Of a stretch of 64,000 nt of DNA, positions 19,373 to 41,160 are shown piece after piece. The notes beneath the pieces were generated by a model, which was given only the letters and a program-made list of their open reading frames with translations, did not search any database and was not told the DNA's origin. The position numbers and the translations under genes were made by a program. Origin of the DNA: a virus. How positions within the stretch are numbered: position 1 is the stretch's first letter; each line of letters begins with the position of its first letter. Location of the stretch: IMG/VR virus record IMGVR_UViG_3300009159_000048, positions 30,242 to 94,241 of that record; one strand, written 5' to 3'.

Positions 19373-20134
19373 ATGACACCATTAAATTCTTTTACATACA
19401 TAATCGGGTACAGACACTCAACAGAAAGACTAAATAATCTAAAAAGAGTTTTAGATTGGATTAACGGATTTCAAGGAGTTGATGTTATTGTCATTGAACA
19501 AGATACACACAGTAAGATTTCTCATCTAAGTCTAAAATGTAGACATATATTTCTTAAATCAAATTTACCATATAACAAATCTTGGGCATTCAATGTAGCA
19601 ACTAAAATGTCAAGATCCAATATAATCGTGTTTGCAGACTCGGACTTAATTATGGATCCAAATAATTTTATTGAAGGTCTTAGATTACTAGAAAAATTTG
19701 AAATGGTAAATCCATATCAATCTGTAATAGATTTAGACCCACAAGAATCAGGTTCTCAACTTGAACAAATGACAAAGATCGAAAGATCTGGTAGAGGAGA
19801 AACAGACCATCAAAAAGTTCCAATCTGTGGAGGCATTTGTATGTTTAGAAGAGAAGCAATTATGAAAGTTGGTGGATGGAATGAAGACTTCATTGGTTGG
19901 GGAGCAGAAGATGATTTTGTATCTCATAAAGTAAAACAATTCTTAAATTGGCATCAATTGCCACATAAGTGCTATCATCTTTACCACACTAGAAATCAAC
20001 CAGATATGACTGCATATCAAAGAAACTTACAATTACTAAATCAGTTAATTGCGCTTCCAAAAGAAGAACTTGTTAAAACAATTAACAAGTCTATTCCAAA
20101 ACAAGCTATGTTAAATAAGTATGATAATTTCTAA
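19373..20134 (+). CDS. GT2/GT7-like galactosyltransferase
   Basis: YNKSWAFN, FADSD, GGWNEDFIGWGAEDD, YHLYH. Confidence 0.85.
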   Translation: MTPLNSFTYIIGYRHSTERLNNLKRVLDWINGFQGVDVIVIEQDTHSKISHLSLKCRHIFLKSNLPYNKSWAFNVATKMSRSNIIVFADSDLIMDPNNFIEGLRLLEKFEMVNPYQSVIDLDPQESGSQLEQMTKIERSGRGETDHQKVPICGGICMFRREAIMKVGGWNEDFIGWGAEDDFVSHKVKQFLNWHQLPHKCYHLYHTRNQPDMTAYQRNLQLLNQLIALPKEELVKTINKSIPKQAMLNKYDNF

Positions 20135-20897
20135 GAATCATTTACAATCAATTTGTAACTACACCGAAGTCAGTTCTATTAAAAATCCTCAATTTTCTTA
20201 CATTGAAATGGAAGAGAGTAATTCTGATGATTATAAAAGAAGAATACAATCTATAAATAGAGGACTTGCGATTGATGCTCTCCTAGACAATAAAGAAGAA
20301 GAGTATAAAAATAGAGAAAATTATTTAGAAGAAGATTTTGATTCAGAGAGTTATGTAAGTACTGTAACCCCAAAGATTAAAACTATAAGTCTAAACAATC
20401 CTATTAAGTATAATTCATTAGATAGTATTTTTGATTACACTCTAAATCAATTAGAATCACTAACATCAAATTCGATGACTGGTAAAAATATAGATTTAAC
20501 ACTATCAATAGATCCTTCTTTATCAGATTATGATAATTTTCAAGCAAACACTAGGAGAGTTTTGACTAGAATTATGTTAGTTAATAATATGATTACTCAG
20601 ACATCCAGAATAGGACCTGCTTCATCTATAATATTAGGAGAAGATGTATTTAAAATTATTTCTCAATCATCTAATTTCTCATATCAAGTATCAGGAACCG
20701 GACCGATAAACGGAACAATTGCTGGACTATCTGTTATTTTTTCAGAAAAATTAACAAAAAATAAAGTGATTTTAATTAGAACTAATTCCAACTCTGATAA
20801 TGGACTAAATGTAATTAATGATACACAAAATGGTGAGTTTTATATAAAAGAAACACCTAACTGGCAGAAAATGATACACTGGTTTAGTGTTATTTAA
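20121..20897 (+). CDS. Degenerate major-capsid-protein (gp23-like) derivative
   Basis: RRVLTRIMLVNNMITQTSRIGPASSII...GTIAGLSV...KVILIR resembles the gp23 A-domain segment; carries an NRGLAIDALL tag. Confidence 0.55.
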   Translation: MIISKNHLQSICNYTEVSSIKNPQFSYIEMEESNSDDYKRRIQSINRGLAIDALLDNKEEEYKNRENYLEEDFDSESYVSTVTPKIKTISLNNPIKYNSLDSIFDYTLNQLESLTSNSMTGKNIDLTLSIDPSLSDYDNFQANTRRVLTRIMLVNNMITQTSRIGPASSIILGEDVFKIISQSSNFSYQVSGTGPINGTIAGLSVIFSEKLTKNKVILIRTNSNSDNGLNVINDTQNGEFYIKETPNWQKMIHWFSVI

Positions 20898-21426
20898 GAG
20901 CAACTCTTAACTTATCATACTTAGATAATAACTTAAACATACGATCCCACTCATCTCCAGGATTCTCAATCTTCTTTTCAAACCACTTGTTATTATTAAG
21001 ATATTCAACTATCATACCAACCTTAAAGTCTTCTAACTTTGTTGGTTTCCAATATCTAACTTGTTCAACAAAAGAAAATGAAAGTCCATTATAAAGGTAG
21101 GAAACATTATCAGAGTCTGTATTATATAAAACTATACCTAACGGTTTTTCAGAACCATCTCTGAATAGTTTCTTCGCTCCTGTCTCACCTTTATATTTTA
21201 TTATACCACACTCTTGATTAAAATGATTCAGTAGAAAAATTAGTTCTTTTCTTAACACATCATTATCAACATCAGAAAAAGCTAAAGCAGAATCTTCATA
21301 TTGGTCTTTGTAGAATCCTTTTATAGGTAAAATTTGATAATCTTTAGCATATAGTATAGATAACATACTTTCTATCTTATCAGAAGAAAGCAAAATAAAA
21401 GAAAGATTCTTATTAGTTAGATCCAT
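20890..21426 (-). CDS. Hypothetical protein
   Basis: 178-aa ORF; TAATATATA at 21431-21439. Confidence 0.75.
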   Translation of the reverse strand: MDLTNKNLSFILLSSDKIESMLSILYAKDYQILPIKGFYKDQYEDSALAFSDVDNDVLRKELIFLLNHFNQECGIIKYKGETGAKKLFRDGSEKPLGIVLYNTDSDNVSYLYNGLSFSFVEQVRYWKPTKLEDFKVGMIVEYLNNNKWFEKKIENPGDEWDRMFKLLSKYDKLRVALK

Positions 21427-21452
21427 ACTTTATATATTAAAATATCAATATG

Positions 21453-22703
21453 CTAATTGACATCGACAAGTCCAAACTCTTTTTGTATCTCAGAATTAAA
21501 TAAATTTGATACTTCGTCTTTGTATTTTTTTGGATAAACTATACTATCATGTACAGTAATGACTTTTATATCTGGATATAACACCATCATCTTTTTGATG
21601 ACTTTATTATAAATTAATCTAGATTCAGCTCTTTGTAAATCATATGATAAAGATTTATAATCACCTGAGTCTTTTTTGTATAATTTAATGAAATTATGTA
21701 TGGTTGGGAAAATAGAAGCAAACTGTTTATCTATTTTACTATTTGATGAGTTTCTACCAAAAAGAACTTTATAAGTCATTTCCTTAACTAATTTTCTATC
21801 TTTGACATTAAGAGAAGTCATCATAAACTCATAGTAAGTTCCATTCAACGTAAGAGACTTAAAGAACTCAAATTCTTCTTTCTTAACCCATGATGTTTGT
21901 GTATCTTCTATCAAACGACAAAGGAATAAAGGTTGTGAATTTTTAATATCTATTTCGCAAGTTTCTTCACCGTCAATTAATAAACAATTTTTTCTAATAA
22001 AAGATCTTAATATTGTAAAATTCGTGTGCATTCTACCATATGAATCAAAATGAAAGAATATATGTTTATCTGAAATAGATTCAACCGAGTAAGAATTTCT
22101 ATTATAAATATCGATATCTTTTCTTTTCAATCTATTTAGAAAATCCATAGATCTTTCTTTATCAATACCAACAGTATATAAATCAGATACTAACTTTTGC
22201 CTTACTTCTAAATTTATAGGACTTAAATCAACAGAATCATAATCAATTGTTTGTATGATTTTATTCTTATATTTTTTCAACAATATCTTATCTTGATTAT
22301 TGTATCTAAGAATTCTGTTTCTAAAAAATCTTGGATTAAGTGAATAAGTTCTACTTTTTTGACCAGCCTTATAATTTCTTTCCATTTTAATAAAACCTTT
22401 CTCAACTAAATATGAAATGTAAAAATTATAAAGATGACCATACTTCTTTTTAAGAATAGTTGCATTGAGTACAAATCCATTTTCTTTCTTAAAGAAATAT
22501 TTTAATACCATATTGTGAACGATATCAATCAGATAATCTGATTTTAGTTTTTGATTATTGAAAAAAATATGTTTAGAATTTTTGAGGTATTCTAAATCTT
22601 CTGGTAAAAATTGCAATGAATTTTTTTTATTTTTTATCTTACTACTTATTAATCTTGTATAGTCTATATATCGAATTTCTTCTATATTATCGTAATGTCT
22701 CAT
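21453..22703 (-). CDS. Compact family A polymerase-fold protein with N-terminal HTH-like region
   Basis: YGRMHT, motif A EIDIKNSQP, motif B RKLVKEMTYKVLFG, LQRAES, motif C TVHDSI; no exonuclease motifs seen. Confidence 0.65.
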   Translation of the reverse strand: MRHYDNIEEIRYIDYTRLISSKIKNKKNSLQFLPEDLEYLKNSKHIFFNNQKLKSDYLIDIVHNMVLKYFFKKENGFVLNATILKKKYGHLYNFYISYLVEKGFIKMERNYKAGQKSRTYSLNPRFFRNRILRYNNQDKILLKKYKNKIIQTIDYDSVDLSPINLEVRQKLVSDLYTVGIDKERSMDFLNRLKRKDIDIYNRNSYSVESISDKHIFFHFDSYGRMHTNFTILRSFIRKNCLLIDGEETCEIDIKNSQPLFLCRLIEDTQTSWVKKEEFEFFKSLTLNGTYYEFMMTSLNVKDRKLVKEMTYKVLFGRNSSNSKIDKQFASIFPTIHNFIKLYKKDSGDYKSLSYDLQRAESRLIYNKVIKKMMVLYPDIKVITVHDSIVYPKKYKDEVSNLFNSEIQKEFGLVDVN

Positions 22704-22749
22704 ATAGATTTATATCAAAAATTAAAGTAGGTGTTTGTATAAAAAAAAA

Positions 22750-22950
22750 TTAATTATTAAAAATTTTGTTGATGGAATTTTTTCGATTTTGTCTTCTTAA
22801 TTCCTTAGCAAAATATCCCTCAAAAGAACTAATGTCAATATCACTAAATACCTCTAAATCTTTAGCCATCTCTCGAGTCCAAGAAGCCTTCAATGTTCTT
22901 GTTTGAGATTTAACTTCAACAGAAGTCATGCTAATATCAATCGATTTCAT
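22750..22950 (-). CDS. 66-aa gp23 major capsid fragment-like protein with C-terminal tag
   Basis: VEVKSQTRTLKASWTREMAKDL matches the gp23 signature (T4 gp23 as recalled: IEAKSRQLKAAYSIELAQDL); ends NRKNSINKIFNN. Confidence 0.7.
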   Translation of the reverse strand: MKSIDISMTSVEVKSQTRTLKASWTREMAKDLEVFSDIDISSFEGYFAKELRRQNRKNSINKIFNN

Positions 22951-24293
22951 TACTTAGTTGGTGTTTTAGGAGTTTCTTCTTCGGTCTCAGGTACAATAGG
23001 TAGTTTACCACCTTTGCCTTTTTTCTTCTTATCAGATTCAACACCTTTCTCGAATTCAGAATAAACATCTGGATAAACTTGACCCTCAGCATCTTGGTCA
23101 TATTGAATCTCAAAGAAATCACCAAAGTCTAAAAGACCAGCTCTACCAAGTTCAATTTGTTGCATCTTATTAAGATAAGTTGAAATATAACTATCTATAT
23201 CTGCTACAAATTTATTAAATAAAGTTACTGTATTATCAGTAAATATACCAATTGCTTTTTTCTTCTTTTTATTGAATGATCCCAAAACAACCTTGAAGAT
23301 ATATTCTAATTTCTCATCTTCTTTTATGTAATCTTTTGTTAATTTATTATTAATTAACTCTGTATTAATTTTAAATTTATCTTTATCAAAAAAATCAGGA
23401 ACAGTAAAATCAAAATTTAGTAAATCTTCTTTTACCTCAGAAACATAAATATTGAAAAGTTTACTAATCAAGTAAATATAGATATCGTCTTTTTTATCAC
23501 CTTTTAATTTAATATCTTCTAAATTGACTGACTGACAGAAGTTTAAGAAGTTAATTAGAATCAATGTGTATATTTCAACAAACTCTGTGTTATTTGTCTC
23601 ACTTAATCTTTTATATAAAGGATTCAATAACTCAAATGACATATCTTTACTTTGACATCTTATTATCATTTTTTCCAAGTTTTTCTGAAAATCTTCATCC
23701 ATTAAGAACGAATTATCAATTTTAGGATTTAATATCTTATAAAAGAAGTATGAGAATGATTTTTCACCAAAGATATATTCTAAATCATTTTCTGATGTAT
23801 TGATAAAATACTTTATAGCCTCTATCATATTTTCTGTTAATTTACCCTGATATATTATAGGAAGTAAATCCACGTTCAATAATCTTGAATACTCGGTGAG
23901 TTCATCAATGTTCAACTCATACTTATTTGATTTATAGATTCCAGTAAGAACTAATTGATTTTTAGGAACTCTATTATACTCAATATTAGCTGGTTGATTG
24001 TCGGGAAAATACTCAAAACAAAACCACCACTTTTTATTTAATAATCCTTTTATTCTATCATCTAAAGAATTAAAAAAGTCAATTGCTGGATTATAATAAT
24101 TTTGCATAGCCAAGTCTATAAGATTTATAGACTGTGATGTTACTGACTTTGGTTTAATTTGAAATTCTTTCCCGTTCCAATTAACCCATATTTTACTACC
24201 TTGTACATCTTCATATACAAATATCTCATCAGCAAATAGGTCATTTAGAATTTGGTCATCGGTTAGACCATTAAGTGTAATTAATTTACTCAT
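22950..24293 (-). CDS. Hypothetical protein with degenerate RNA-ligase-like N-terminal domain
   Basis: VYEDVQGSKI at the motif I position (normally EKxDG), FCFEYF, LLPIIYQGKL, LEKMIIR. Confidence 0.5.
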   Translation of the reverse strand: MSKLITLNGLTDDQILNDLFADEIFVYEDVQGSKIWVNWNGKEFQIKPKSVTSQSINLIDLAMQNYYNPAIDFFNSLDDRIKGLLNKKWWFCFEYFPDNQPANIEYNRVPKNQLVLTGIYKSNKYELNIDELTEYSRLLNVDLLPIIYQGKLTENMIEAIKYFINTSENDLEYIFGEKSFSYFFYKILNPKIDNSFLMDEDFQKNLEKMIIRCQSKDMSFELLNPLYKRLSETNNTEFVEIYTLILINFLNFCQSVNLEDIKLKGDKKDDIYIYLISKLFNIYVSEVKEDLLNFDFTVPDFFDKDKFKINTELINNKLTKDYIKEDEKLEYIFKVVLGSFNKKKKKAIGIFTDNTVTLFNKFVADIDSYISTYLNKMQQIELGRAGLLDFGDFFEIQYDQDAEGQVYPDVYSEFEKGVESDKKKKGKGGKLPIVPETEEETPKTPTK

Positions 24294-24332
24294 AAATTGA
24301 TTTCTGTTTTTATCAAGTTTATATATTAAAAG

Positions 24333-24614
24333 TTAGGAGTTCTGTAAAAAATCTAATATTTTGTCAATATTTTCTTTACAATAACCTCCTTGAAATGGAA
24401 TTCCACCTGATTTTAGATAGTTATTATAAAGATCATTAAATTCATCTTCACTGTAAAATTTATTATCTAAATCTGAAAATACTACTGTAGTATCAGAAGC
24501 GTCTACTGTTTTATTTTGTAGTCTTGTTTCACCATATGCTGGACCAATCGGACCAACCAATTCAGTACCAGAAATCTCTTCTGTGATAAATTTGTTAAAT
24601 TTTTTAATCTTCAT
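24333..24614 (-). CDS. Small protein with MKIKKFNKFITEE leader
   Basis: ATG 24614 preferred because it exposes the shared leader. Confidence 0.7.
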   Translation of the reverse strand: MKIKKFNKFITEEISGTELVGPIGPAYGETRLQNKTVDASDTTVVFSDLDNKFYSEDEFNDLYNNYLKSGGIPFQGGYCKENIDKILDFLQNS

Positions 24615-25062
24615 TACTAACATTTAATTTTTCAAAGTATTCATCTTGTTCTTGAAGAGAATATTGATTCTTCTTAATATTATATATTATATTATAAAGA
24701 AACTTATCATGCATTTTGTGTTTTTCATCAGACTTCATAATAATTAAAGACTCTTCACTTTCAAAATCGTCAGTGATATCAATTATTTGCAATCCAAACT
24801 TACCATTTCTATCATGTAAATCACAAATAATTTTTTTATCTTTTTCTAACAATTCTTTAACTTTTTTAGAAGTTGAATTTTTAGAAAGCATCATATAATC
24901 TCTATCCTCTATCTTAGAAGTTTGATTATAAAGGTCAAGAAATTCTCTTTCTCTCTTCGTTATACGAACCCTTTTTGAGATTTTATCCAATATTCTATTC
25001 ATCTCGATTTCTTTTATTGATTCACCAAGTATGTAGTATTTAAATAATTTAGATATCTTCAT
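24604..25062 (-). CDS. Hypothetical protein
   Basis: 152-aa ORF; TAATATATA at 25086-25094. Confidence 0.75.
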   Translation of the reverse strand: MKISKLFKYYILGESIKEIEMNRILDKISKRVRITKREREFLDLYNQTSKIEDRDYMMLSKNSTSKKVKELLEKDKKIICDLHDRNGKFGLQIIDITDDFESEESLIIMKSDEKHKMHDKFLYNIIYNIKKNQYSLQEQDEYFEKLNVSNED

Positions 25063-25142
25063 CAGATTGGTAAATTTTTATAGTTTATATATTATACATG
25101 TAATAACGGTTTTTATATATACTATCGAAATAAAAGTTTTTT

Positions 25143-28100
25143 ATGGATAAACAGTTATTAAAAGCTCTTGATAATTTAGGAAATGCTTTAGAACTTCTTA
25201 CAGATGCTCTAGCGAGTAAAAAAGAAGCTAAGTCTGATACTGCTCAAGCCATTAGTGGCGGTGACTTTGGTAAACAATTGGAGTCCATAAACTCAGGTAT
25301 AAAGTCTATTAAAGCAGACACTCAAGCAATACTTAATAATCAGAAGACAATTGTTGATTTACAGAAAAAAAAGAACTCAGATAAAAAAACAGATGAGTTT
25401 GAGTCAGCTGAAACAGACAAGAAAAAAGAATCAAATATAAAGAAAGGTGTTGGTACAATACTTTTAATAGCAATTGCGGTATTAGCAATCGGTATGGCAT
25501 TTAAGATTGTCGGAAAAGTAGATTTTCTATCAGTAATAGGACTTAGTTTGGCGATATTATTAATCGCAGTTGCTTTTGAGAGAATCGCAAAAAGTGGTCT
25601 TACTCCTAGATCAGCATTGGGTGCGTCTATAGTAATGGGAATAATTTCACTTGGAGTTCTCATATCATCATTTATTCTTTCTAAGATTCAGAAAATAACC
25701 ATTATGCAGTTCCTAAGCGCGGTAATGATAGCTACACTATTTTACTTTATCGCACCAGTAATGGCAGATGTCATAAATAGACTTCAAGATGAAACTGAAC
25801 TTTCGATGGATGATGGAAAGGGAGGTAAAACGAAGATGAGGACAAAAAAAATGTCTTGGGGTAAACTATTTGGCATGGTCATCGGGTTACCACTAATAAT
25901 GCTTGCTATGTCAATAGGTATAACTGTATCATCTTGGATATTATCTAAAATAAGACCAATGACTATTCCACAAATAATAACTGCTATTTTAATAGCAGGT
26001 ATGTTTACTGTTGTCGCATCAGGCATAAAAGGTTTATTACACGCATTGACTGAAGAAACTGAAGTACAAGCAAAAGGATTTGGAGGTAAACAAAAAGGTA
26101 TTAATATGGGTAAACTATTCCAATTATGTTTGATTTTACCAGTATTAATGGCATCAATAGCAGCGGGTATAACTTTATCATCTTGGATATTAAGTTTAAT
26201 TAAACCAATAAGTTTTAGTCAGGCTATAACTGCAATTGCGATTGGTTTTATGTTCGCTGTTATATCAATTGGTATTAAAGGTTTATTAACGGCTCTTGCT
26301 GTCGTACTACAATTATTCGGAATGGGAACTATGTTAAAACTAGCAGCTGTTGTAGTTTTGATACTACCAGCGATGGCATTGGCAATAACAGCCTCTTCTT
26401 GGATATTATCTAAAGTTAAACCGATGTCATTTATGCAAATATTTGTGGCTATCGTTATTACGCTTATGTTCGCAATATTGAGTTATGTAATGCCTTATTT
26501 AGCAGCTGGTATTATCGCAATTGACAAAATACTCGGAACTAAAAAACTGTTCTTAATTCCACTAACACTTGTGGCCATCTCGACCGCGATTTGGTTATCA
26601 TCTCACATATTAGCTGAGATGAAAGAGATTCCTTGGATGAAGATGTTAAAGATATTAGTTTATGGTATAATTATGGCACTTGTAGTAACCGCATTTACAC
26701 CAGCGGTCATATTCCTGGGACTATTACCACTTAGTAGTTTAATAAAAGGTGTTGTTGGTATTGTTCTTATATCAATGGCAATTGTAATAAGTTCAATGAT
26801 ACTAGCTAAAGGTAAATATGAAAAACCACCTAAATGGTCTTGGACTCTTCAAGTAGCTCTAGCATTTGCGGTATTCGCACCAGCAGTTGTTCTTTTAGGA
26901 TTGTTACCACTTCCTGTTATTATACTCGGTCTAGTCGCAGTAGCTATTGTTGCAGTTGCAATAGTTCTTACTGATAAAATATTAGCAAAAGGTCAGTATA
27001 AAAAATATCCACCAACTAAATGGACGTTAGGTGTAGTCGCTGTACTAGCACCATTTGCTTTAGGAATGGCATATTTAGGTCCATTAATAATTCCAATAGT
27101 ACTAGGAGCTGTAGCAATATTAGTAGTAGCAGCGAGTATAGTCGCGGTTTCTAAAATAATATCAAAAGGTAGTTACGATAAATTCCCTCCTTTAGAGTGG
27201 ACCAAATCAGTTACTCTAAGTATGGGAGTCTTTGGAGTTGCTATGTTAGGAATGGGTTCTCTTATTGTTGGGAGTTTAGGTTTAGGACTAGTAGCACTAG
27301 CAGCTGGTGGTGAAGCTGTACTGATGATAGCACAAACAGTCGTAGACACAGCAGCAGTTCTTGGAAGAGGTAGTTTTAATGGTGGACCAACAAAAGAATG
27401 GGCTCAAGGTGTATCAATAGCACTTGGTGCTTTCTCAATAGTTTATAAAATGTTAGCAGATAATGCCTTCTGGTCATTCTTTGGAATGGGTGGAATAGGT
27501 CCAAATGAATTTGCTGCTGGTATTAAAGTAGTTACAAAAGGAATTATCGTGGCTGCAAAAGAATTTGAGTTAAACAAAGCGGCATTTAAGGAAGGTCCTT
27601 CAGAAAAATGGGCCAAAGGTGTTGCTATAGCAATCGGAGCATTCGCACCAGTTTATAAAGTTCTACTTGGTGAAGGAAGAAGTTTATTTGATAAAGTATT
27701 CGGAGGACCAGCACCTAAGCCAGAAGATATGGCCAAAGCAATTAGAACAATATCTTCTGGTATTATAGTTGCCGCTCAGTTCTTTGCGAAAAATAAAGTT
27801 GCATTTAAGGAAGGTAACTACCCATCTAAAAAATGGGGTGTTGGTGTAGGAAAAGCAATTGGAGCATTCGCACCGGTTTTTCAATTATTATCAGGAAAAA
27901 GTTGGTATCAGTCAAGTGATGATGTGATACGTGGAATGGGCAAAGCAATAAAAGCGGTCAGTAAAGCGATTATTTCTTCAGGTGAAATATTTGGAAAAGC
28001 AGAGGATGGAGTTTTTAACTGGAAAAAAGCACCAAATAAAAAATGGGCATCGGGAGTATCAGCAGCGATAGAAGCATTCGCTGGTGTATTCGAGTATATG

Positions 28101-29174
28101 TTTGCCAACTCAGGATGGTTCACAGATGGAGATGAGGTGATAGATAACATGACATATGCCATAAGAAAGATTTCTTATGCAATTGCTGATGTGGCAAGAG
28201 AATTTGGTTCCGTTGGTGAACAAAACTGGAAAGCTTATCCATCAGACTCTTGGGGATCAACTATTAAATCATTAAATGAGACAATGACCTACTCCGCAAA
28301 GTTCTTAGTTGATCAATGGGGTGAAGGTGATTACGAAATAGGATGGGGTCTTTATACAATGGCTAATAAAATGAAAAATGTAGCTCATGAATTTGATGGA
28401 TCTGATAGTTGGCAGGCACCTGACAAGAAATGGGGAGCTTCAACATCATGGAATATGAAATTCTTCTCAAAATTAGCAGGATGGATGATTGTTAATGGAA
28501 GTTTCGTTGGTACAGAAATGTTAGTTTACACTGCTGATAAGATGAGTAAAATAGCTAATAAGTTATACTCAACTAGAAAAGCATTTGATTATAATATACC
28601 AGAAAATTTCATACCTAATCTAAGAAAAAACATGTTAGACTTCCAATCGTTGGTACATGAACTAGCTAAAAATGAAGAGAAAGGTATGTTAGAGTTGATG
28701 GGAGACGCATTTGGTAAAGCGATGGGTGAAAAAGATCCTATTATACAAATGGCTAATAGAATGGTGGCTCTCGCAAAAGGATATTCAGCCTTAGCTAGAT
28801 CTCTTACTGAATTAGGATCAGCAATGAAATCAGTGAATGCTAAAAGTCTTACAGAACTTGGTTCTATAACAAAAGGTGTTGCTGGTAAACCAATAGAAGG
28901 TAAAAAAGAAGAAAAACAAGGTCTATTTCAAAGTATAAAATCTTCATTCACTAATTTTGGAGGAGATGATAAGAAAGAAAAATCTGGATTCCAACCACCA
29001 CCTAAGAGTAAGAAAAACTCATTGGGTTATGTATCAGAAAAACTTGAGGAATTAATAAAAGTAATGCAAAGTATTAAGAAAGATACAAATAGCTTAGACG
29101 CTCAAGTAATGAAGATGGGTGATGGTAAAATCAAAACAGAGGTAGACAGTAGTGGGTTTGGATTAGACAATTAA
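25143..29174 (+). CDS. Tape-measure-like protein with long hydrophobic helical repeats
   Basis: 1343 aa, Ala/Gly/Ile-rich; repeats SSWILSKI(R/K)P, KGxYxKxPxxxW, P-x-x-x-WAxGVxxAIGAFAPV. Confidence 0.6.
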   Translation: MDKQLLKALDNLGNALELLTDALASKKEAKSDTAQAISGGDFGKQLESINSGIKSIKADTQAILNNQKTIVDLQKKKNSDKKTDEFESAETDKKKESNIKKGVGTILLIAIAVLAIGMAFKIVGKVDFLSVIGLSLAILLIAVAFERIAKSGLTPRSALGASIVMGIISLGVLISSFILSKIQKITIMQFLSAVMIATLFYFIAPVMADVINRLQDETELSMDDGKGGKTKMRTKKMSWGKLFGMVIGLPLIMLAMSIGITVSSWILSKIRPMTIPQIITAILIAGMFTVVASGIKGLLHALTEETEVQAKGFGGKQKGINMGKLFQLCLILPVLMASIAAGITLSSWILSLIKPISFSQAITAIAIGFMFAVISIGIKGLLTALAVVLQLFGMGTMLKLAAVVVLILPAMALAITASSWILSKVKPMSFMQIFVAIVITLMFAILSYVMPYLAAGIIAIDKILGTKKLFLIPLTLVAISTAIWLSSHILAEMKEIPWMKMLKILVYGIIMALVVTAFTPAVIFLGLLPLSSLIKGVVGIVLISMAIVISSMILAKGKYEKPPKWSWTLQVALAFAVFAPAVVLLGLLPLPVIILGLVAVAIVAVAIVLTDKILAKGQYKKYPPTKWTLGVVAVLAPFALGMAYLGPLIIPIVLGAVAILVVAASIVAVSKIISKGSYDKFPPLEWTKSVTLSMGVFGVAMLGMGSLIVGSLGLGLVALAAGGEAVLMIAQTVVDTAAVLGRGSFNGGPTKEWAQGVSIALGAFSIVYKMLADNAFWSFFGMGGIGPNEFAAGIKVVTKGIIVAAKEFELNKAAFKEGPSEKWAKGVAIAIGAFAPVYKVLLGEGRSLFDKVFGGPAPKPEDMAKAIRTISSGIIVAAQFFAKNKVAFKEGNYPSKKWGVGVGKAIGAFAPVFQLLSGKSWYQSSDDVIRGMGKAIKAVSKAIISSGEIFGKAEDGVFNWKKAPNKKWASGVSAAIEAFAGVFEYMFANSGWFTDGDEVIDNMTYAIRKISYAIADVAREFGSVGEQNWKAYPSDSWGSTIKSLNETMTYSAKFLVDQWGEGDYEIGWGLYTMANKMKNVAHEFDGSDSWQAPDKKWGASTSWNMKFFSKLAGWMIVNGSFVGTEMLVYTADKMSKIANKLYSTRKAFDYNIPENFIPNLRKNMLDFQSLVHELAKNEEKGMLELMGDAFGKAMGEKDPIIQMANRMVALAKGYSALARSLTELGSAMKSVNAKSLTELGSITKGVAGKPIEGKKEEKQGLFQSIKSSFTNFGGDDKKEKSGFQPPPKSKKNSLGYVSEKLEELIKVMQSIKKDTNSLDAQVMKMGDGKIKTEVDSSGFGLDN

Positions 29175-29215
29175 CGCAGTTACTAAACTTTGTTAATAAA
29201 TTAAATATAAATGTT

Positions 29216-30141: not shown

Positions 30142-30372
30142 ATGATAACTAATAATCAAAATCACGGACAAAATTACGTTCAAGCACTTAAGAAAAAATA
30201 TGAGTTTCAGATGGAAGAAGCTAAAGCAAATTTAGCTCTTTATTTTTCTAGCTCAAATTTAGCAGCAATTGGAGAACACTCTGATTTACTAGCTGAACAT
30301 GACAGATGGGTTGAACAATATGCAAACGCAAAAGATAAACTAGAAGCTCTTATGAGCCTATATGAAAATTAA
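30142..30372 (+). CDS. Small coiled-coil hairpin protein (IGEHSDL)
   Basis: 76-aa ORF in a co-oriented run. Confidence 0.7.
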   Translation: MITNNQNHGQNYVQALKKKYEFQMEEAKANLALYFSSSNLAAIGEHSDLLAEHDRWVEQYANAKDKLEALMSLYEN

Positions 30373-31090: not shown

Positions 31091-31095
31091 TTGTT

Positions 31096-34000: not shown

Positions 34001-36879
34001 GTTGGAGTTGAAGTTAAGTTATTGAATGCAAAAATATCAACTCTTGGTAAATTCTGATAAGTTACATAAATATCACCATTTATCGGATTCACTTCCATAT
34101 CAAATGACTCAGCAGTTGAGTTAGAAGCAGTTAAAGATATTACTGAAACAAGTGTATTCACAACAGGGTCAACAACATATAATTTATATCTTGATAAACA
34201 ATATAAATAATTATTGACCGTATTAAATTCCATCTCTATACTTTGAGTGTTACCAGGTAAAGATATTGTTGTTAAATAATCGCCATAGAATGAATCTATT
34301 GCAACTAAATCATCACCAAATAGTAATATAGAACTAGATAACTGAACATAGATTAAATCAACTAAGTTAGATGTACCAGGATATGTTGAATAGTTATAGG
34401 AATTAAAATTATAACTATTCGGATTAAATGCTAATGCAAAAGATAGTGGATTAAAATCACCACCAACAATACTATCAAATGGACCACCAACACCACCAGT
34501 AGGACCAGCAGGAACAACACATGCTGTCTGGCCAAATCCTAAACTAAAAGCCAAAGTTATAAATGCTGATGAGTTACATATAGCATTTGTTAATCCCCAG
34601 AATGGACCTTGATAACTCAAATTCATAACTGTTGGATCTAAGTACTCAATGACATACTCTTGGTTATTATAAGGATAAAACGTATTATTTATAGAGAATG
34701 CCATTCCGGTTGAGAATCCTTCCTGCTCAAATGAAACAGTAGCGGAACTTGGAAGTATAACCTCATTAGATGCGATTAATACACCCTCATTACCCTTTAA
34801 CTTATTTGTAATTTTATAATCTTCTATTCCTGGTAAATTTACTTTACCAGTTTTGATTGTATAATCTAGTCTTTGTTCTAAAGTTACAACATTAAAAACG
34901 ATTAAATTATTTATGTGTTCAATTATAATTCCAAAATCTAATAAGTATTCAGCATATTGAACATGCCACGAAGTAAGTGTAGAGTTTATATCCGGGAAAT
35001 TATTAGAATCATAAACAGTCGACTGTGGATAATCATCACCATTAATATTAATTGTTAAATAAGGACCTAAATCATAAAACAAAACTCTAGAATGTTCAAT
35101 GTAGTATGCTGCAGTGTCACCAACTTCAACAAAATCTAGTAACATTGGAACATTTGGATATTCAGTTCTAAAATGAATTGAATTATAAAAAACAGAAGTG
35201 AAACTCCCTGTATATTTCAATTCAGCGATTACTCCTAAAGAAAAAAGTCTAACATAATATAATGTCAACCAACTTCTTAAAGTTCTATCAATTGTTCTTT
35301 CCATATCTATTACAGAACCACTGTAAACAAAGATAGTCTCAACATCATATATTTGACCATTTATTGAAATTTTAAATCCAAAGGAATCTAAATCAGTGAA
35401 AATCACATTGATAGTGAAGTTTTCAGAATAGTTATAATTTAATTCTTTTGTTAAATTTTCTTTAACTCCTATTAATTTTTCATAAACACTCTTATAGTTA
35501 CCTATAGAATAAGTAGGACCAATAGCAGTATGGTAAAAATTAACTTTAGAATAATCACTAGCGTAAACTAAATCAGCTTTTAATTGATTGTTCTGATAAT
35601 AAAGGTCAATATTAAATATTGCTAAATCTTCTTTGTATTTTTCAACCGCCGAAGCTAATGTAACAGAAGCTGAACTAGTCCAACCAAAATCAAAATAATA
35701 TCTATCAGTAGTAAGATATATTTGAGCATTTAATAAATTTTCAACAGAAGTAGACTGGTCTACTTTTATATAAGTTGGATCACCCCAAAAATCTTCGTTA
35801 GTACTTGGATTTATATAAATCCAAGGAGAAACATAACTATGTGTATAAGCAATTTTACACTCTCTAATTTTATTATCATATAATACCTGTGACCCAGTAG
35901 CATAATAAGTAACGCTAGTTGTAGTATCAAAAAGAGGTATAGGAGCAACTGTAAAAAAGTTAACATTATTTATAGATCCAATTACCTTAAACTCAACTCC
36001 TGGTTTTAATATACTAGGATAGTTAGATGGATTTACATTTATTTTATTATCACCAGTGACATATAAATAATCATTATATACTCTAGGCACATCAGTTTTT
36101 GTAATAACCTCTATAATTAAATTTGTATCTATAGGTAAGGAAGACTTATTAACAAAATACTCAAAGTGATTCAAGTCAGTTAATCCTATATCATTAATAG
36201 TAAATGTATCATCATTTTTTACAGAACCAACAACATGTAATTTCTTTCCTTCATAAACTAAATCATAAAAATTTGGTTCAGACCACAATGCTAAATTATT
36301 CTCATAAAAGTTATTTATGTAATTATAAACACCGATTGCATTTATACCAGACATATAAACATCATTAAATGTTGTTTGATTAATATAGATATTATAATAA
36401 GTAGACTCAAATGTTGCATTATCCATTTGAGAAACTACCATTATTGCTCCCTTTTTACTACCAACAACAACATAAGTTCTATCTAAGTTATTGAATTCCA
36501 TTACAACAGAGTCAAACTTAACCAACGTTCCTAATGGAAAGTTAGTTTCAAAATTCTCACCATAAATCCACTTTGTGTAAAAAGTAGAATCATTATTTAC
36601 AGGTTCTATTAAATCAACTTTTAGATTTGAATATTTTGAACTATAGAAATGAGTACCATACTCATTAAAAAGTTGAAATTTTTGAGTTGTCAATTGACCG
36701 ACTAATTCAAAATCAAAAGTCGGAACCCTCTCAAGTGTATAAATACCATACGTCTTGAATGTATCAGTTGAGTTTTCATGGAATAGTATATCACCCTCCC
36801 ATCTTTGAGTTAAATCATTAAAATTAAAATTTAGGTAATCTCCCTCTTTATTAAAGAAATACAGATCCTGTTCTGCCAT
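31096..36879 (-). CDS. Large virion structural protein, probable baseplate wedge with beta-propeller region
   Basis: 1927 aa; YVTN-like blades (FNxxxGDxYVT), IYPYIGSYKSLINAINYFGY wedge-like motif, WxxxxxYxxGDxVxY carbohydrate-binding-like repeats. Confidence 0.6.
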   Translation of the reverse strand: MAEQDLYFFNKEGDYLNFNFNDLTQRWEGDILFHENSTDTFKTYGIYTLERVPTFDFELVGQLTTQKFQLFNEYGTHFYSSKYSNLKVDLIEPVNNDSTFYTKWIYGENFETNFPLGTLVKFDSVVMEFNNLDRTYVVVGSKKGAIMVVSQMDNATFESTYYNIYINQTTFNDVYMSGINAIGVYNYINNFYENNLALWSEPNFYDLVYEGKKLHVVGSVKNDDTFTINDIGLTDLNHFEYFVNKSSLPIDTNLIIEVITKTDVPRVYNDYLYVTGDNKINVNPSNYPSILKPGVEFKVIGSINNVNFFTVAPIPLFDTTTSVTYYATGSQVLYDNKIRECKIAYTHSYVSPWIYINPSTNEDFWGDPTYIKVDQSTSVENLLNAQIYLTTDRYYFDFGWTSSASVTLASAVEKYKEDLAIFNIDLYYQNNQLKADLVYASDYSKVNFYHTAIGPTYSIGNYKSVYEKLIGVKENLTKELNYNYSENFTINVIFTDLDSFGFKISINGQIYDVETIFVYSGSVIDMERTIDRTLRSWLTLYYVRLFSLGVIAELKYTGSFTSVFYNSIHFRTEYPNVPMLLDFVEVGDTAAYYIEHSRVLFYDLGPYLTININGDDYPQSTVYDSNNFPDINSTLTSWHVQYAEYLLDFGIIIEHINNLIVFNVVTLEQRLDYTIKTGKVNLPGIEDYKITNKLKGNEGVLIASNEVILPSSATVSFEQEGFSTGMAFSINNTFYPYNNQEYVIEYLDPTVMNLSYQGPFWGLTNAICNSSAFITLAFSLGFGQTACVVPAGPTGGVGGPFDSIVGGDFNPLSFALAFNPNSYNFNSYNYSTYPGTSNLVDLIYVQLSSSILLFGDDLVAIDSFYGDYLTTISLPGNTQSIEMEFNTVNNYLYCLSRYKLYVVDPVVNTLVSVISLTASNSTAESFDMEVNPINGDIYVTYQNLPRVDIFAFNNLTSTPTATLSPSTTGFPVSANRTGKMTFNSFEGDMYVTTDADELVRVNSNRTVQTTYGISGLTHSIFYEPVYESVYVYSTASLFRIDNGVTQSLSITTTNFNDIIFNNLTGEMNVSNNSGLYRLDLLSNTSTQIQGTAGHGYLVLNQHDGDVYVSLQGYTGSNGQIIAVDALDGTVKWNQSTGAPTTKIIYNPERDSVWSIQPSINSVAEVQVVLNGSIIINPATFSSIDDGSYGIFDPTYVPRESIWLQTREFFRRPRENFEGDVKVKYYWRWLTDQATEFFLYDFSGDLLPATGSYAYTGVKPLDSPVLNRIANKDITKVNYAAYQQTIFDKVEYELSYIDDSNDTTVSPVALETFIGYRSENEGALRTVLQLFKSEPIEFNILSNQYTNITFRTTDVNGDRRGEIFINETSSETFTGRGLKPGQNLVIYIRDNTNNKNQYISRNNSIIVKIRNVFTKYLIVDFFNVNTDVMLQENTVLQNYPQTGKTTYLKCTFKVKDKEVGRFVTYGQTEEEDIRFKIELSNLGKLISPDEVFIFKEYDINEGGIDWPFLNKKRKEMLMNKSQIYPYIGSYKSLINAINYFGYNDLQLNEYYRNINAESKQFGQLFKVEIPDIFDNTIKGWNEKDFLKMTLPNPNYEDTNLFNLTYFITDFDGNFILDYTLDEIIIKLQGLKYWLKRNIIPLTHKIMDVTGRTYLNSGSSIQHQTFDVSIFNMKQEMTPVTFKMNEAYLSPVNSGSTVYNCVLDFYSIIPGLTSPYFEFPRPEVAPYREATLSAPDYFNVRIRTYKTYKEWAPFTTYEKGDKVIYFELLYESVIDNNRVKNPRKFENSALWSSSDNYSVSSVVKYEDDFYVYSGLGSTASVSLTVPPTPNFPPNLDPQNWLKVTEWKRISLEPVQTIHEYREGTSLKPFNFTADSNIDPFVVIEVTSDNGYGQIYTDKKSYYLKGLKDLPEEYAYIDPIGPFEPISPVY

Positions 36880-36947
36880 TTATAAACTTAGGTTTTGATT
36901 ATATATTAATTTTAGATTTCTTGATAGACAAAATTAATATATAACTT

Positions 36948-37307
36948 ATGAAATTAATTAGATACTCTGAGTTTATTAATGAATCGTTCTTTAGAAAATT
37001 AAGAACAAAGAAGAATAAAATAAACTATTCTGATAAAATCGAAAATTGCAAAAACGAAATAATCTCTTTCTTAGAAGAAAATGGAGTTTTTAGCTGGAAC
37101 GATTTCGAGAAAATGAACACATTTAAAAGAGATGTCGTTAATAAGATAATTGATAAATCAGTAGATACTCTCAATGATGTGAAAGAAGTCGTTTTTAGAA
37201 TAAGATTACATCTATCTAATCCTTTACAACTGAGAGAATATGTAAAGGAACTAGAATATCAAGAGGAATATGAAAAATGTGCAAAAATTTTACAAAAAAT
37301 TAGATAA
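36948..37307 (+). CDS. Protein with MKLIRYSEFINES leader and C-terminal UVR-like motif
   Basis: Ends ELEYQEEYEKCAKILQKIR; TAATATATA at 36935-36943. Confidence 0.75.
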   Translation: MKLIRYSEFINESFFRKLRTKKNKINYSDKIENCKNEIISFLEENGVFSWNDFEKMNTFKRDVVNKIIDKSVDTLNDVKEVVFRIRLHLSNPLQLREYVKELEYQEEYEKCAKILQKIR

Positions 37308-37311
37308 AACT

Positions 37312-37770
37312 ATGAAAATAAAAAGATTTGAATCAAAAGAAGAAAAAGTAAAAAACCAAGAGGTTTTATTTACTGCTAAATCCTTAGAAAAAAATAAGGA
37401 AGAAAAACCATCATTCAAAACTGAAGTTGAGGATAATGAAAAAGTTCAGAAAGAATTCAAGAAGTCAATGGATAAAATTGAAAAGTTTGAAAATTTTATA
37501 ATTGAGATAGGAGTTAAACAAACTGATGATTCTGAAGAACAGAAACTTTTAGGTGGTCCTGAATCTTCACACACTGTACATGATAATAACATGAGAAATA
37601 TGGAGAGTGAGAAAGAAGTTGGTTGTGGATGTTGTGACCAATGTAATGGACAAGAAGACTGTGAATGTTGTAACGACTGTACTTGTGGTTCTGATTTAGA
37701 AGAGTCTAATCCAGAAACAGATGTTAAAGTTATGAATATTGCTGACTTTATAGAGTTATTAAATAAATAA
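37312..37770 (+). CDS. Acidic protein with MKIKRFES leader and Cys-rich cluster
   Basis: ATG 37312 follows the upstream stop; contains CGCCDQCNGQEDCECCNDCTC. Confidence 0.7.
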   Translation: MKIKRFESKEEKVKNQEVLFTAKSLEKNKEEKPSFKTEVEDNEKVQKEFKKSMDKIEKFENFIIEIGVKQTDDSEEQKLLGGPESSHTVHDNNMRNMESEKEVGCGCCDQCNGQEDCECCNDCTCGSDLEESNPETDVKVMNIADFIELLNK

Positions 37771-37778
37771 TCAATAAT

Positions 37779-38363
37779 ATGAAAATTATTAAATTCACAG
37801 AATCTATTAATATATCAGAGTCTCTAAAATACCATTTAGATAATAATAAACCTATTACTGAAAATATATTCAGACCAGGTTCAGAAGCTTTCTATGAAGT
37901 AATCAAAGAAGCTAGAGAACTATTTGACTTAGGTAGAGTTAATCTATGTGATGTTGATAAAGAACTTTACGAATCAACTGATATTGGTAAGTTTGGAATG
38001 TTCAACGGTGAACTAGTTCCTTTAGATTTACCAATGGAAAATATAGAAGAGATAAGAGAGGAAGCCGAATATAAAGGTAAAGAAGTTAAATTAAATTATC
38101 CTACAAGAAGCTCAGGTCCTAAGAAATATAAAGTATATGTAAAGAATCCTAAAACTGGTAGGGTTAAAGTTGTAAATTTTGGTGATGTGAAAGGTGGATT
38201 GACAGCTAAAGTTAATAATCCAGGGGCTAGAAAAAGTTTCGTAGCAAGGCATAATTGTAAAAGAAAATGGAAACCTGAAGACAAATTATCTGCTGGATTT
38301 TGGTCATGTAGACTTCCCAAATTTAAGCACTTAGTTTCAACAACTTACAATGGTTATTGGTAA
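37779..38363 (+). CDS. Phage hypothetical protein with MKIIKFTES leader and basic C-terminal domain
   Basis: KKYKVYVKNPKTG...VNFGD...ARKSFVARHNC...GFWSC. Confidence 0.75.
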   Translation: MKIIKFTESINISESLKYHLDNNKPITENIFRPGSEAFYEVIKEARELFDLGRVNLCDVDKELYESTDIGKFGMFNGELVPLDLPMENIEEIREEAEYKGKEVKLNYPTRSSGPKKYKVYVKNPKTGRVKVVNFGDVKGGLTAKVNNPGARKSFVARHNCKRKWKPEDKLSAGFWSCRLPKFKHLVSTTYNGYW

Positions 38364-38409
38364 TCCAATAACACTTTATAGGGACTGCATATTATTTAAT
38401 ATATAGAAT

Positions 38410-39837
38410 ATGAAAAATATTTTATATCAAATTGTAATAGAGGAACATAAGCATCTACTCAAAAAAACGGGTGTTTATAAGATACTAAATAAAGAAAACA
38501 ATAAGGTTTATATTGGTTCCACATCTCAAAGGTTTTCAAATAGACTCTCTAATCATATTAGAGAGTTAATTGAAGACAGACACCATTCAAAGTATTTACA
38601 AAATTCATATAATAAAAGAAAAGATATTAATAAATTTGAAATATCGATTTTAGATGTATGTGAACCAGAAGAATGTTTATTATTTGAGCAAAAGTGGCTA
38701 GACATTTATAAGTCATATATAAAAGAATTTGGATATAATATTTGCCCAATTGCTGGATCATGTTTAGGTATAAAAAAATCTAAAGAGGAAAAAATAAAAA
38801 TATTCGAAAGAAGTAGATGTCTATCAGATAACCAAATAATTGAAATATTCAAACTTAGGAATGACCTAAAACTCTCATATAGATTAATTTCAGAAGGAAT
38901 GAATATCACAAAAAATCAAGTTGCGTCAATTTTAACAAAACCTATTAAATATAAATATGTTAAAGAGAAATATAAATTAGAGTTAAAAGTAAGATTTGAA
39001 AAAGAGTTCACAAAATATGATATAATTAAAATTCACAATCTATATGAAATAGAGAAATTTTCTATTCGAGATATATCAGAGATAATGAAGTTAAGTCTTA
39101 TAAAATTAAAACATCTAATTTACAATGAAAAATTATATTTAATAGAAAAAGAAAATTTGAAATTTAATGTAGATAAAAATAGAAAAAATAAAATCTATAA
39201 GAGAAAAAAAAGACCATTTGGTATTAAAGTGAATAAGACCATTATATCGGAGCTGGAGATTAGTGAAGTTTTTAATCTTAAATATAATTCAAATCTTAAA
39301 AATGATGAAATATTAGAAAAGACAGGCATCACATTAAAGGATATTAAATTGATTCTATCTTATATATATCAAAGAAGAAAATACAATCAACTCTATATTT
39401 CTCTTAAAACACAATTTAATCTAAGAGAAAAAAGAACAGTTCTTAGTGAAGTGGATATAGTTGGGATATTTAATGACTATAATAGTGGAAAATATCTCAT
39501 AGAAGAATTAAATGAAAAATACAATTTTAATGATGTTGGTGTGATTATACAAAAATCGGATAGAATATCTAATTACTATAAGGATATAATTAATAAAAAT
39601 AACCTTAGAGTAGATAAATCATCAACAAAAAACAAAGAAATTAAATCCAAATCCATGTCTGAAATGAATAAAAAAAGAGCTAAGACTTATGAGATAGTAA
39701 ATCCAGAAGGAATTAAAACTAAAATAACAAATTTAGCAGAGTTTAGCAGAGATAATGGCCTGGATGCCGCGAATCTATCAAGAGTTTCAAAAAATGGGAA
39801 ATCATACAAAGGGTGGAAGTGTATTTGCTTAGATTAA
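38410..39837 (+). mobile_element. Free-standing GIY-YIG homing endonuclease
   Basis: GVYKILNKENNKVYIGST, R..H, HHSKYLQNSY, EQKWLD, GYNI; repeated HTH-like units and a C-terminal NLAEFSRDNGL...YKGW module. Confidence 0.88.
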
Positions 39838-39847
39838 TATATAGTAT

Positions 39848-40654
39848 ATGAAACACTTAAAAACATATCAAATATTTGAATCTGAATTTTTTACAATCAG
39901 TGACGAGAGAAGAAAAAAACTAATTGATTATATAAATAGTAGTTTAGATGGCGCGGATATGGATTTTTCTTCTTGGATATATCAAAATATAATTCGGGGA
40001 AAAGAAGAACATACAGAACTTAATGATTTTATTCAAAAATTATCTCCTAATTGGAAAAAAATACTTGATGAATACTTAGCTAAGTATAAAAGTGGAGTAA
40101 TGAAAATTGGACAAGATGACCAAAATGAGTGGTTTGGTGTAAATTATAACTCAAGTCTTAAACAAAAAGAAGTAATAGGTGATCAGGAGATAACAAAAAA
40201 CTTTTATGTAACATTTGAGAAAAGCGAAGACAACCTGAAAAGATGGTTCAATGGACTCGGAACTCTTATAAGTGACTTTTACAAAGCTTGCACAGAAGGT
40301 GAATTAAAAAACTCGGCAATTTCTTTCAAATGTGGATATGATGGTAAACATTTTATAGAAGACAATGACCATCTAAAGTTTTATTGGTATAAAGATGATG
40401 ATAAAAATAAAGTATTAGAAGTATATAATAATTGGTTGAAGAAAACTGGTATACAAACTAAGAAAAGAGCTTATGATTTTGGAATAGACACTGCAAAAGG
40501 TAGAGATAAAAATAGCTTTGGTCTAATGGTTGCAACTAAGGTGAATAACCAGTTTCAAAAACTTAAATCACAGTATGGAAAAAAGTTTACATCTGAACAA
40601 TATGCAGATTATATAATAGATATGTTAAACAAAACAAAGTTTAAAATTGATTAA
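39848..40654 (+). CDS. Protein with MKHLKTYQIFES leader; globular domain of unknown function
   Basis: 268-aa ORF; TAATATATA at 39835-39843. Confidence 0.78.
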   Translation: MKHLKTYQIFESEFFTISDERRKKLIDYINSSLDGADMDFSSWIYQNIIRGKEEHTELNDFIQKLSPNWKKILDEYLAKYKSGVMKIGQDDQNEWFGVNYNSSLKQKEVIGDQEITKNFYVTFEKSEDNLKRWFNGLGTLISDFYKACTEGELKNSAISFKCGYDGKHFIEDNDHLKFYWYKDDDKNKVLEVYNNWLKKTGIQTKKRAYDFGIDTAKGRDKNSFGLMVATKVNNQFQKLKSQYGKKFTSEQYADYIIDMLNKTKFKID

Positions 40655-40925
40655 TATGACACTTCCATTTCAAGAAACTAAATTAGGTGATAATACATTT
40701 ATCAGAGAGTTCGTTCAAGATACTGATTCTGGAGAGTTTACTTGGCATCGTGACCGTGAATCTCGTACAATTGAATCTATCGGTGAAACAGACTGGTTAA
40801 TTCAAATTGATAATGAACTTCCGAAAAAGATTGAAGGAGAAGTATTTATACCAATGGGTGTTTATCATAGACTAATAAAAGGAACTAGAAATCTTAAAAT
40901 TAAACTTCAGAAGATCCAAAATTGA
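40647..40925 (+). CDS. Small cupin-like protein
   Basis: WHRDRE ... FIPMGVYHRLIKG; likely start ATG 40656. Confidence 0.7.
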   Translation: MINMTLPFQETKLGDNTFIREFVQDTDSGEFTWHRDRESRTIESIGETDWLIQIDNELPKKIEGEVFIPMGVYHRLIKGTRNLKIKLQKIQN

Positions 40926-41160
40926 TATTTCCGTAAAAGTTATTATTTATAATCTTTTTAGAATATCTACTTGTAATTGATTTACTTGGAGAAAATTCAT
41001 CTTTAATATCTAATCCTAAATCAAATATCTTATTGATCTTTCTTTTTCTACTTACGTTCTTAGAAGTATATCCAGATATAACAGAAGTAGTAGTCATTGG
41101 AATATAAGGAGCATAAATATAACCACTTTCTAAACTACCTTTCTTACCTATAGCTGACAT
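40900..41160 (-). CDS. 86-aa gp23 major capsid C-terminal fragment-like protein with inserted tag
   Basis: GKKGSLESGYIYAPYIPM ... FSPSKSITSRYSKK...FYG matches the gp23 C-terminal G-x-K-G...G-x-x-YAPY...F-x-P...[TS]RY pattern; SRKRKINKIF inserted. Confidence 0.7.
   Translation of the reverse strand: MSAIGKKGSLESGYIYAPYIPMTTTSVISGYTSKNVSRKRKINKIFDLGLDIKDEFSPSKSITSRYSKKIINNNFYGNINFGSSEV

Follow-up and report, generated by a model that had tools for sequence, protein, structure and literature searches.

We analyzed a 64,000-nt stretch of viral DNA (hereafter the window; positions 30,242 to 94,241 of IMG/VR record IMGVR_UViG_3300009159_000048) carrying three short open reading frames (ORFs) that derive from a T4 gp23-type major capsid protein (MCP), namely P1 (20121-20897, + strand, 258 aa), P2 (22750-22950, - strand, 66 aa) and P3 (40900-41160, - strand, 86 aa). 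P2 and P3 are real, conserved and fast-evolving genes, each made of an excerpt of a canonical T4-gp23-type capsid protein plus a short peptide tag. Both are members of a clade-specific family that numbers about 17 tagged mini-ORFs (minis) per genome, which stand singly or in tandem and are movable within the genome. P1 is of a separate class, a compact paralogue of the resident capsid protein.

The window comes from a viral record of 94 kb (G000) with a CheckV completeness of 17%, which implies a genome of roughly 500 kb. Its source is a freshwater megaphage, kin of the uncultured “huge phages” of ~480-640 kb. It was compared to two uncultured huge-phage records, W01 (LR745206, 634 kb) and W02 (LR756502, 642 kb), and to the IMG/VR relatives G001 (476 kb, 97% complete) and G002 (175 kb). 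A six-frame scan of the whole 94-kb record with the Gp23 profile hidden Markov model (HMM) found only the places of P1, P2 and P3 and no full-length MCP. Whole-record scans of W01, W02, G001 and G002 found one full-length Gp23 MCP of 560-583 aa in each, together with further small Gp23-matching ORFs (two in W02, three in W01, five in G002 and six in G001). Among them are types not found on the incomplete 94-kb record: a 67-75-aa piece of the spine helix (“T4-type”), a 56-aa piece of the A-domain (“A-type”), a 165-aa N-terminal piece, and a second C-terminal-half paralogue of 249 aa. The complete relatives hold 4-6 capsid fragments each beside their full MCP. In G002, the 249-aa paralogue (L128, 1258-2007, - strand) is near the resident MCP (21 bits), and the 165-aa paralogue of the MCP N-terminus lies at L130, 1477-1974, - strand.

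A sequence-only reading of the window had proposed that the three ORFs are pieces of a gp23-type capsid protein whose starts or stops overlap neighboring genes. The ORFs, their quoted motifs and the overlaps were all found in place, and the capsid derivation is borne out. All three match the Pfam family Gp23 (PF07068): P2 at positions 132-172 (E = 5e-6, 26.6 bits, over the 24.4-bit cut-off), P1 at positions 212-277 (E = 7e-4, 19.5 bits, under the cut-off) and P3 at positions 310-334 (E = 2e-3, 18.2 bits, also under it). Relatives reach 38 bits. PHROGs puts P1 and P2 in phrog_138, major head protein. Out of 376 PF07068 positions, P2 covers 41 and P3 about 25-55, and the make-up of a complete shell-forming subunit (N-arm, E-loop, P- and A-domains, ~400-650 aa) was found in none of P1, P2 and P3. 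They are therefore derivatives of the Gp23 family and not usual capsid subunits. The ESM Atlas holds many viral clusters of ~80 aa automatically named “Gp23 domain-containing protein”; such ORFs are thus present in databases, though uninterpreted, and these labels hide a distinct gene class.

P2 is collinear with a strand of the MCP P-domain and the spine helix, and ends with the tag. Its family comprises 28 clusters at 90% identity, 59-67 aa long, in which E12, R18 and W24 are invariant. P3 consists of two C-terminal strands of the MCP P-domain. It was aligned to the C-terminal ~55 residues of authentic MCPs (about 55 proteins of 554-680 aa) that belong to other large phages; the stretch LESGYIYAPYIPM is identical at 13 of 13 positions to the C-terminus of two 554-aa authentic MCPs (L085, L095). 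In this alignment the tag appears within an insertion of ~20 residues between the two C-terminal blocks, as had been claimed for the 86-aa protein. The P3 family is large (346 clusters, about 85 aa), and G13, Y14, P18, Y19, S64, R65 and Y66 are invariant in its capsid part. A confident fold was not predicted for P3 alone (predicted local distance difference test, pLDDT, 48). Co-folding of P2 with P3 from their family alignments (A2, A3) scored 0.00, which weighs neither way.

The tagged minis resemble canonical capsid proteins more than those of their own phages. For this comparison we made one HMM out of 12 canonical MCPs and another out of four resident-type MCPs; the resident type was inferred from the four relatives, as the window's own MCP lies off the 94-kb record. 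P2 of the window scored 19.0 bits with the canonical HMM vs 0.0 bits with the resident-type HMM, and P3 scored 23.4 vs 2.2 bits. The same contrast held by type. P2-type minis scored 12.7-33.5 bits (canonical) and -2.9 to 3.2 bits (resident), P3-type minis 18.4-25.0 and 2.2-6.4 bits, with the exception of W01's P3 (17.2 bits with the resident-type HMM), “T4-type” minis 17.1-19.2 and 6.1-8.7 bits, and the A-type mini 23.4 and 2.2 bits. The tagged minis thus copy a canonical gp23-type capsid protein and not the divergent MCP of these phages.

The tag itself has the basic-hydrophobic consensus [RK][RK]x[KS]I[NE][KN]IF. The same tag had been assigned to all three ORFs, and this stood for two of them. 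In a position-specific scoring matrix (PSSM) comparison, the tag of P2 (NRKNSINKIF, residues 55-64; 22759-22788, - strand) scored 29.5 and that of P3 (SRKRKINKIF, residues 37-46; 41023-41052, - strand) 28.9, against a shuffled maximum of 10.5. The candidate tag of P1, NRGLAIDALL, scored 7.4 and was rejected; it lies in the predicted spine helix (residues 35-55). Within the P3 family no block is better conserved than the tag, with R38, K39, K41, I42, I45 and F46 invariant among 36 sequences, and related forms such as IRKESINKIF, RRKNSINKIF and IRKEKIKRLF are carried by minis of the relatives. Synonymous codons differ among tags (Ser TCN/AGT, Arg CGA/AGA/AGG/CGT, Ile ATC/ATT/ATA), which shows selection on the tag peptide; a DNA- or RNA-level element as the source of conservation was rejected for the same reason. 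The tag is thus a real motif, as the sequence-only reading had supposed, and is conserved at the peptide level.

Tags of this kind are numerous. A degenerate DNA pattern for the tag gave nine matches in W01 vs one for the reversed control, and all the new matches fall in ORFs of 35-60 aa. In the full G001 genome about 17 ORFs of 40-97 aa scored 15-30 with the tag PSSM (shuffled maximum 13.1); with few exceptions the tag lies close to the C-terminus, a few residues away at most, and tandem arrays hold several of the carriers. The strict tag occurs three times on the 94-kb record: in P2, in P3 and in a 32-aa ORF outside the window. That ORF (15155-15253 of the record, - strand; L018) holds little besides the tag (RRKKSIEKIF) and lies upstream of a 545-aa protein rich in Ser, Thr and Gly; relatives have similar ORFs that start with MPLP. 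The tag is C-terminal in P2, in the “T4-type” and A-type minis and in W01's P3, and internal in P3 of the window lineage. In P2 it stands where the end of the spine helix would be (canonical EIDREILRDL), from which it may derive, although the “T4-type” mini has both a native helix end and an additional tag.

The family is not confined to capsid pieces. One tagged mini matches DUF2793, a domain associated with tail fibres (E = 3.6e-4), another is similar to the Walker-B strand of the same genome's DnaB-type helicase (E = 0.002), and a third weakly resembles TerL motif III (E = 0.21). By-eye readings of other tagged minis as a tail-sheath N-terminus, PolB motif B or terminase Walker A were not confirmed by Pfam or PHROGs. 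When tagged minis were compared to the large proteins of their own genome (blastp-short), the significant matches were confined to those between tags and to the helicase piece. Many proteins of 100-270 aa with unassigned function end in a looser version of the tag. In the window these include a 177-aa protein (9473-10006, - strand) ending in IRDKKIEHLFGNL, whose PSSM score of 11.7 is borderline and whose G001 orthologue gives tag-to-tag matches, and a 152-aa degenerate AAA/RecA-like P-loop protein (3949-4407, - strand) ending in IRDKKINLLLDEK.

These observations invite the explanation that the tag matters and not the capsid piece. The minis would be small adaptors or regulators binding one hub, such as a chaperone, a protease, a membrane, or a replication or packaging factor, and their N-terminal parts would be recycled gene fragments serving as raw material. 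That the tag is the most conserved block in every mini, that it is not tied to one position (C-terminal in most minis but internal in P3), and that it is found on non-capsid minis and, in looser form, on larger proteins would fit such a role. However, the capsid parts are conserved too (the invariant residues of P3 and P2 given above), and no hub was found. We take the tag to resemble the C-terminal peptide with which T4/RB69-type proteins bind the sliding clamp, but searches of G001 and W01 for gp45- and DnaN-type clamp genes (PF09116, PF02916, TIGR00663) found none, a divergent or host clamp being still possible. Nor does the tag look like an amphipathic helix, as its hydrophobic moment (0.33) is not above that of shuffled tags (0.43). 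We consider a hub-binding role for the tag alone decidedly unlikely.

P1 differs from the tagged minis in kind, and here the sequence-only reading, which had grouped the three together, does not hold. It is a compact HK97-fold paralogue of gp23/gp24 type without N-arm, insertion domain or appended tag. Its AlphaFold2 model is confident (pLDDT 78.5, predicted template modelling score 0.72), and Foldseek matched it to HK97-fold capsid proteins with probability 1.0. The top match in VIA-align was T4 gp23 (7vrt; Z 17.4, root-mean-square deviation 3.5, 207 of 258 residues, chain positions 106-519), followed by gp24 (1yue; Z 14.5), with generic HK97-fold and encapsulin matches at Z 12.7 or less. P1 thus shows the T4-type HK97 fold expected of a gp24-like vertex paralogue. 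It spans the strand, the spine helix, the A-domain and the C-terminus. By sequence, the P1 family profile found no capsid match among PDB sequences, and fold comparison was needed; against the resident-type MCP, hhalign gave E = 6.6e-6, and P1 scores higher on the resident-type HMM than on the canonical one. The motif formerly called a tag is the C-terminal half of the spine helix, with an invariant NRxLAIDxxLD (20256-20288, + strand) whose invariant columns in the P1 family are N46, R47, L49, A50, I51, D52, L55 and D56. P1 has 25 near relatives, and an exhaustive profile search found 234 representative clusters at 50% identity, nearly all of 230-280 aa; a full-length MCP was not found among the best 150.

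Taken alone, P1 would count as a new form of gp24-type paralogue. T4 places gp24, a paralogue of gp23, at its vertices, and P1 is likewise a paralogue of a gp23-type MCP with the same fold. In contrast to gp24, P1 is only 258 aa long and lacks the N-arm and insertion domain, and its gene is not adjacent to the MCP gene. Its conservation is far below that of the MCP, with 36-42% identity between genomes whose MCPs are 72-79% identical, and it is known here from sequence and predicted fold, not from a place in the virion. In the largest known phages this compact paralogue, with its 234 clusters, may belong to the capsid as a minor component.

The minis, together with P1, could serve the phage's own head as minor capsid, vertex, scaffold-like or assembly-regulating factors, with the tag docking them to the prohead or its core. 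Of the roles considered it is the most plausible one for P1, whose HK97 fold is compact, near-complete and closest to gp23 and gp24 and for which T4 offers the precedent of a paralogue at the vertices. P1 and P2 are also core-like and syntenic, 12-23 kb from the MCP gene in the relatives; P3 keeps canonical core motifs, and its ancestral slot lies between genes with leaders that we take to resemble the capsid-targeting sequence of T4. For the minis, however, the same explanation meets several obstacles. They resemble canonical MCPs and not the resident one, and they evolve two to three times faster than the MCP. They are embedded in non-structural operons (replication, repair, glycosyltransferase), with neighbors that include a glycosyltransferase gene and an SbcD-like gene. 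Their copy number and position vary, and some of them hold helicase-like or tail-fibre-like pieces. We regard an own-head role for the whole set as possible but rather unlikely.

Conservation and selection show that all three are genes. Homologues of P1 and P2 were found by tblastn in W01 and W02, convergent and ~2 kb apart as in the window, and among related viral loci synteny was conserved for P1 in 27 of 27 and for P2 in 24 of 26. Positions 1-37.8 kb of the window are collinear with W01; flanking proteins are 53-86% identical there, whereas P1 is 32% and P2 42% identical. Pairwise Nei-Gojobori ratios of nonsynonymous to synonymous substitution (dN/dS), computed for pairs of low divergence, were about 0.28 for P1, 0.55-0.6 for P2 and 0.4 for P3, i.e., three to ten times those of four flanking genes (0.02-0.12). 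Selection on P1-P3 is purifying yet clearly relaxed, or else these genes evolve fast. In deeper pairs, identity was 33-42% for P1, 36-58% for P2 and 39-49% for P3, between the same genomes whose MCPs remain at 72-79%.

P3 has moved. In the ancestral slot, seen in W01 and four IMG/VR relatives, P3 and one or two further tagged minis form a tandem array, flanked by a 105-aa gene and a ~190-aa DUF5856 gene. On the 94-kb record these two genes are directly adjacent, with a terminator hairpin alone between them, and P3 of the window lies ~60 kb from that slot, beside the SbcD-like gene. DNA homology to the ancestral copy runs from about codon 3 through the FYG motif; the relocated P3 has a new start and a new nine-residue tail, the latter common to a whole subclade of the family. 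About 1 kb from the relocated P3, at the break of synteny with W01 (~37.8 kb of the window), lies a free-standing gene of homing-endonuclease type (38410-39837, + strand) encoding a 475-aa GIY-YIG protein (PF01541, E = 2.4e-8) that also has a weak match to sigma-70 region 4. This gene is a possible agent of the move.

Decay of duplicated or captured capsid genes, left open by chance, would account for the dN/dS values above those of the neighbors, for the failure of P3 alone to yield a predicted fold and for a homing-endonuclease-type gene beside the relocated P3. It does not account for ORFs that are intact and length-stable across a divergence at which synonymous sites are saturated, for dN/dS of 0.28-0.6, below 1, for a tag conserved as a peptide, or for the retention of P3 after a relocation precise to the ORF. 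These findings, together with the conserved synteny, uphold the argument made from the sequence alone that the ORFs are not pseudogene debris, an explanation that is very improbable and close to refuted.

Another explanation is that a split capsid gene is rejoined by trans-splicing or protein splicing, or that its products reassemble non-covalently into one HK97 fold. Its appeal is that the pieces match successive Gp23 profile positions; the idea of successive capsid blocks stood in that sense, but the pieces are not complementary, as the 258-aa protein overlaps both others. In canonical-HMM coordinates the spans overlap or nest (P2 364-400, “T4-type” 389-424, P3 538-595, with P1 spanning all), and a split gene was rejected because the pieces overlap in MCP coordinates. 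The pieces are moreover found on both strands, at distances of up to hundreds of kb; synonymous variation shows that the tag is not an RNA element; and the complete relatives have an intact MCP. A split gene is the least probable of the explanations considered here, hardly credible at all.

Recoding of TAG is known in some megaphages. As a cause of the short ORFs it was rejected, since P1-P3 end in TAA and have in-frame TAA or TGA just upstream. Over the window, 53 long ORFs end in TAA (42), TGA (9) or TAG (2), and reading TAG as sense yields few extra long ORFs.

The excerpts are buried in the capsid fold, presumably not self-folding, foreign-like and fast-evolving, and they are found in non-structural operons. 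We therefore favor, tentatively and at somewhat less than an even chance, competitive mimicry, in which the tagged minis act in a conflict over the assembly of rival phages or over sensing by the host. The minis are presumably too short to fold alone and keep the buried core motifs of canonical capsid proteins. They may thus offer a canonical capsid segment to any factor that binds canonical capsid protein before its assembly. One possible target would be the pathway by which co-infecting phages of the canonical gp23 type assemble, in which case the divergent resident MCP would be spared; another would be a host factor or sensor for capsid peptides that are not assembled. Through the common tag, all members of the family would dock onto one partner. 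The sequence-only reading had proposed a decoy, a dominant-negative poison or an assembly regulator; because the minis are like the MCPs of other phages and unlike the resident one, interference with rivals fits better than a decoy of the phage's own capsid. Host receptors that sense core phage proteins do exist, and Avs7 binds the MCP together with EF-Tu (10.64898/2026.01.04.697583).

Several points weigh against competitive mimicry. P1 and P2 are syntenic and core-like across a deep clade, which is unusual for conflict genes and fits housekeeping. The contrast between canonical and resident-type capsid proteins comes from HMMs of 12 and four sequences, with the resident type taken from four relatives and the window's MCP not on the 94-kb record, and it could reflect an ancestral canonical paralogue instead of mimicry of rivals. 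Most known sensors read folded surfaces, which buried core strands mimic poorly. The non-capsid tagged minis, with their helicase-like and DUF2793 pieces, show that the family is not capsid-specific. The sample numbers of megaphage loci and of canonical-MCP loci do not overlap, which is uninformative as the scans were driven by sequence patterns.

A broader version of competitive mimicry would take in the non-capsid members. The clade might carry a modular arsenal of “bait plus tag”, some 17-20 mini-proteins per genome, each joining the common docking peptide to a conserved core segment taken from one of the canonical proteins of phages (capsid, replicative helicase, tail fibre, perhaps terminase). 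Such an arsenal would either poison folding or assembly in co-infecting rivals or blind host receptors of the core phage proteome, the divergent resident capsid being spared. We think it unlikely in this full form.

The tagged minis may be compared to several known systems. Capsid-derived triggers of abortive infection include the Gol peptide of T4 gp23, which acts with Lit and EF-Tu, and the trigger of CapRel. As proposed for the minis, in Gol/Lit, CapRel and Avs7/Dsr1 a short linear stretch of the MCP, or its fold, is read by a host factor. Those are, however, host sensors of the real capsid protein, whereas the minis mimic canonical MCPs and not the phage's own. A phage-encoded decoy made of a capsid fragment was not described in the literature that we found. 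P4 Sid, SaPI CpmB and PLE TcaP are small proteins of satellites that take over the capsid assembly of another virus, their helper phage, an activity that is here only proposed. They are scaffolds not derived from capsid protein, whereas the candidate agents in these megaphages are capsid-protein excerpts with a tag. With encapsulin cargo-loading peptides and the T4 capsid-targeting sequence the tag shares the feature of being one short peptide on many unrelated small proteins in a system with an HK97-fold shell. We take its sequence to differ from both; unlike them it can be internal, and this genome seems to use leaders presumably like those of T4 on other proteins.

Full-text searches covering Lak and other huge phages, comparative genomics of jumbo phages, capsid decoys and dominant-negative fragments of capsid proteins turned up no account of such proteins. 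In our view the tagged-fragment family belongs to no known kind of system, its functional role being a proposal. If competitive mimicry were true, it would represent a new principle of viral conflict, in which conserved segments of hallmark virion and replication proteins are turned into tagged peptides that interfere or act as decoys. It would matter directly for understanding how the core phage proteome is sensed by bacteria and how this is countered by phages, and it could supply ready-made peptide inhibitors of T4-type capsid assembly. Whatever their function, the minis of huge phages form a family of small proteins that is large, conserved and without annotation, and its peptide tag gives a means of searching for it.

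Some further observations concern the record as a whole. Contigs nearly identical to positions 19300-24400 of the window occur in freshwater and riverine metatranscriptome libraries from four studies. The phage is therefore aquatic and not a gut Lak phage. These contigs are sparse, overlapping P1 at its 3' end (20708-20980) and missing P2 altogether; carry-over of DNA is possible, and they are uninformative on expression. An ORF near the start of the record (22-921, + strand; L018) looks like RecA/UvsX, with an acidic C-terminal tail ending in DDIFG, and has no Pfam match. Many ORFs within positions 1-20000 of the record (L018) begin with MK..[FY].[ES]F-like leaders such as MKSFSEFLKEE and MKRFSEI, for example those at 5233-6786, 6783-7040, 8520-9107 and 9149-9466; these are the leaders that presumably recall the capsid-targeting sequence of T4.

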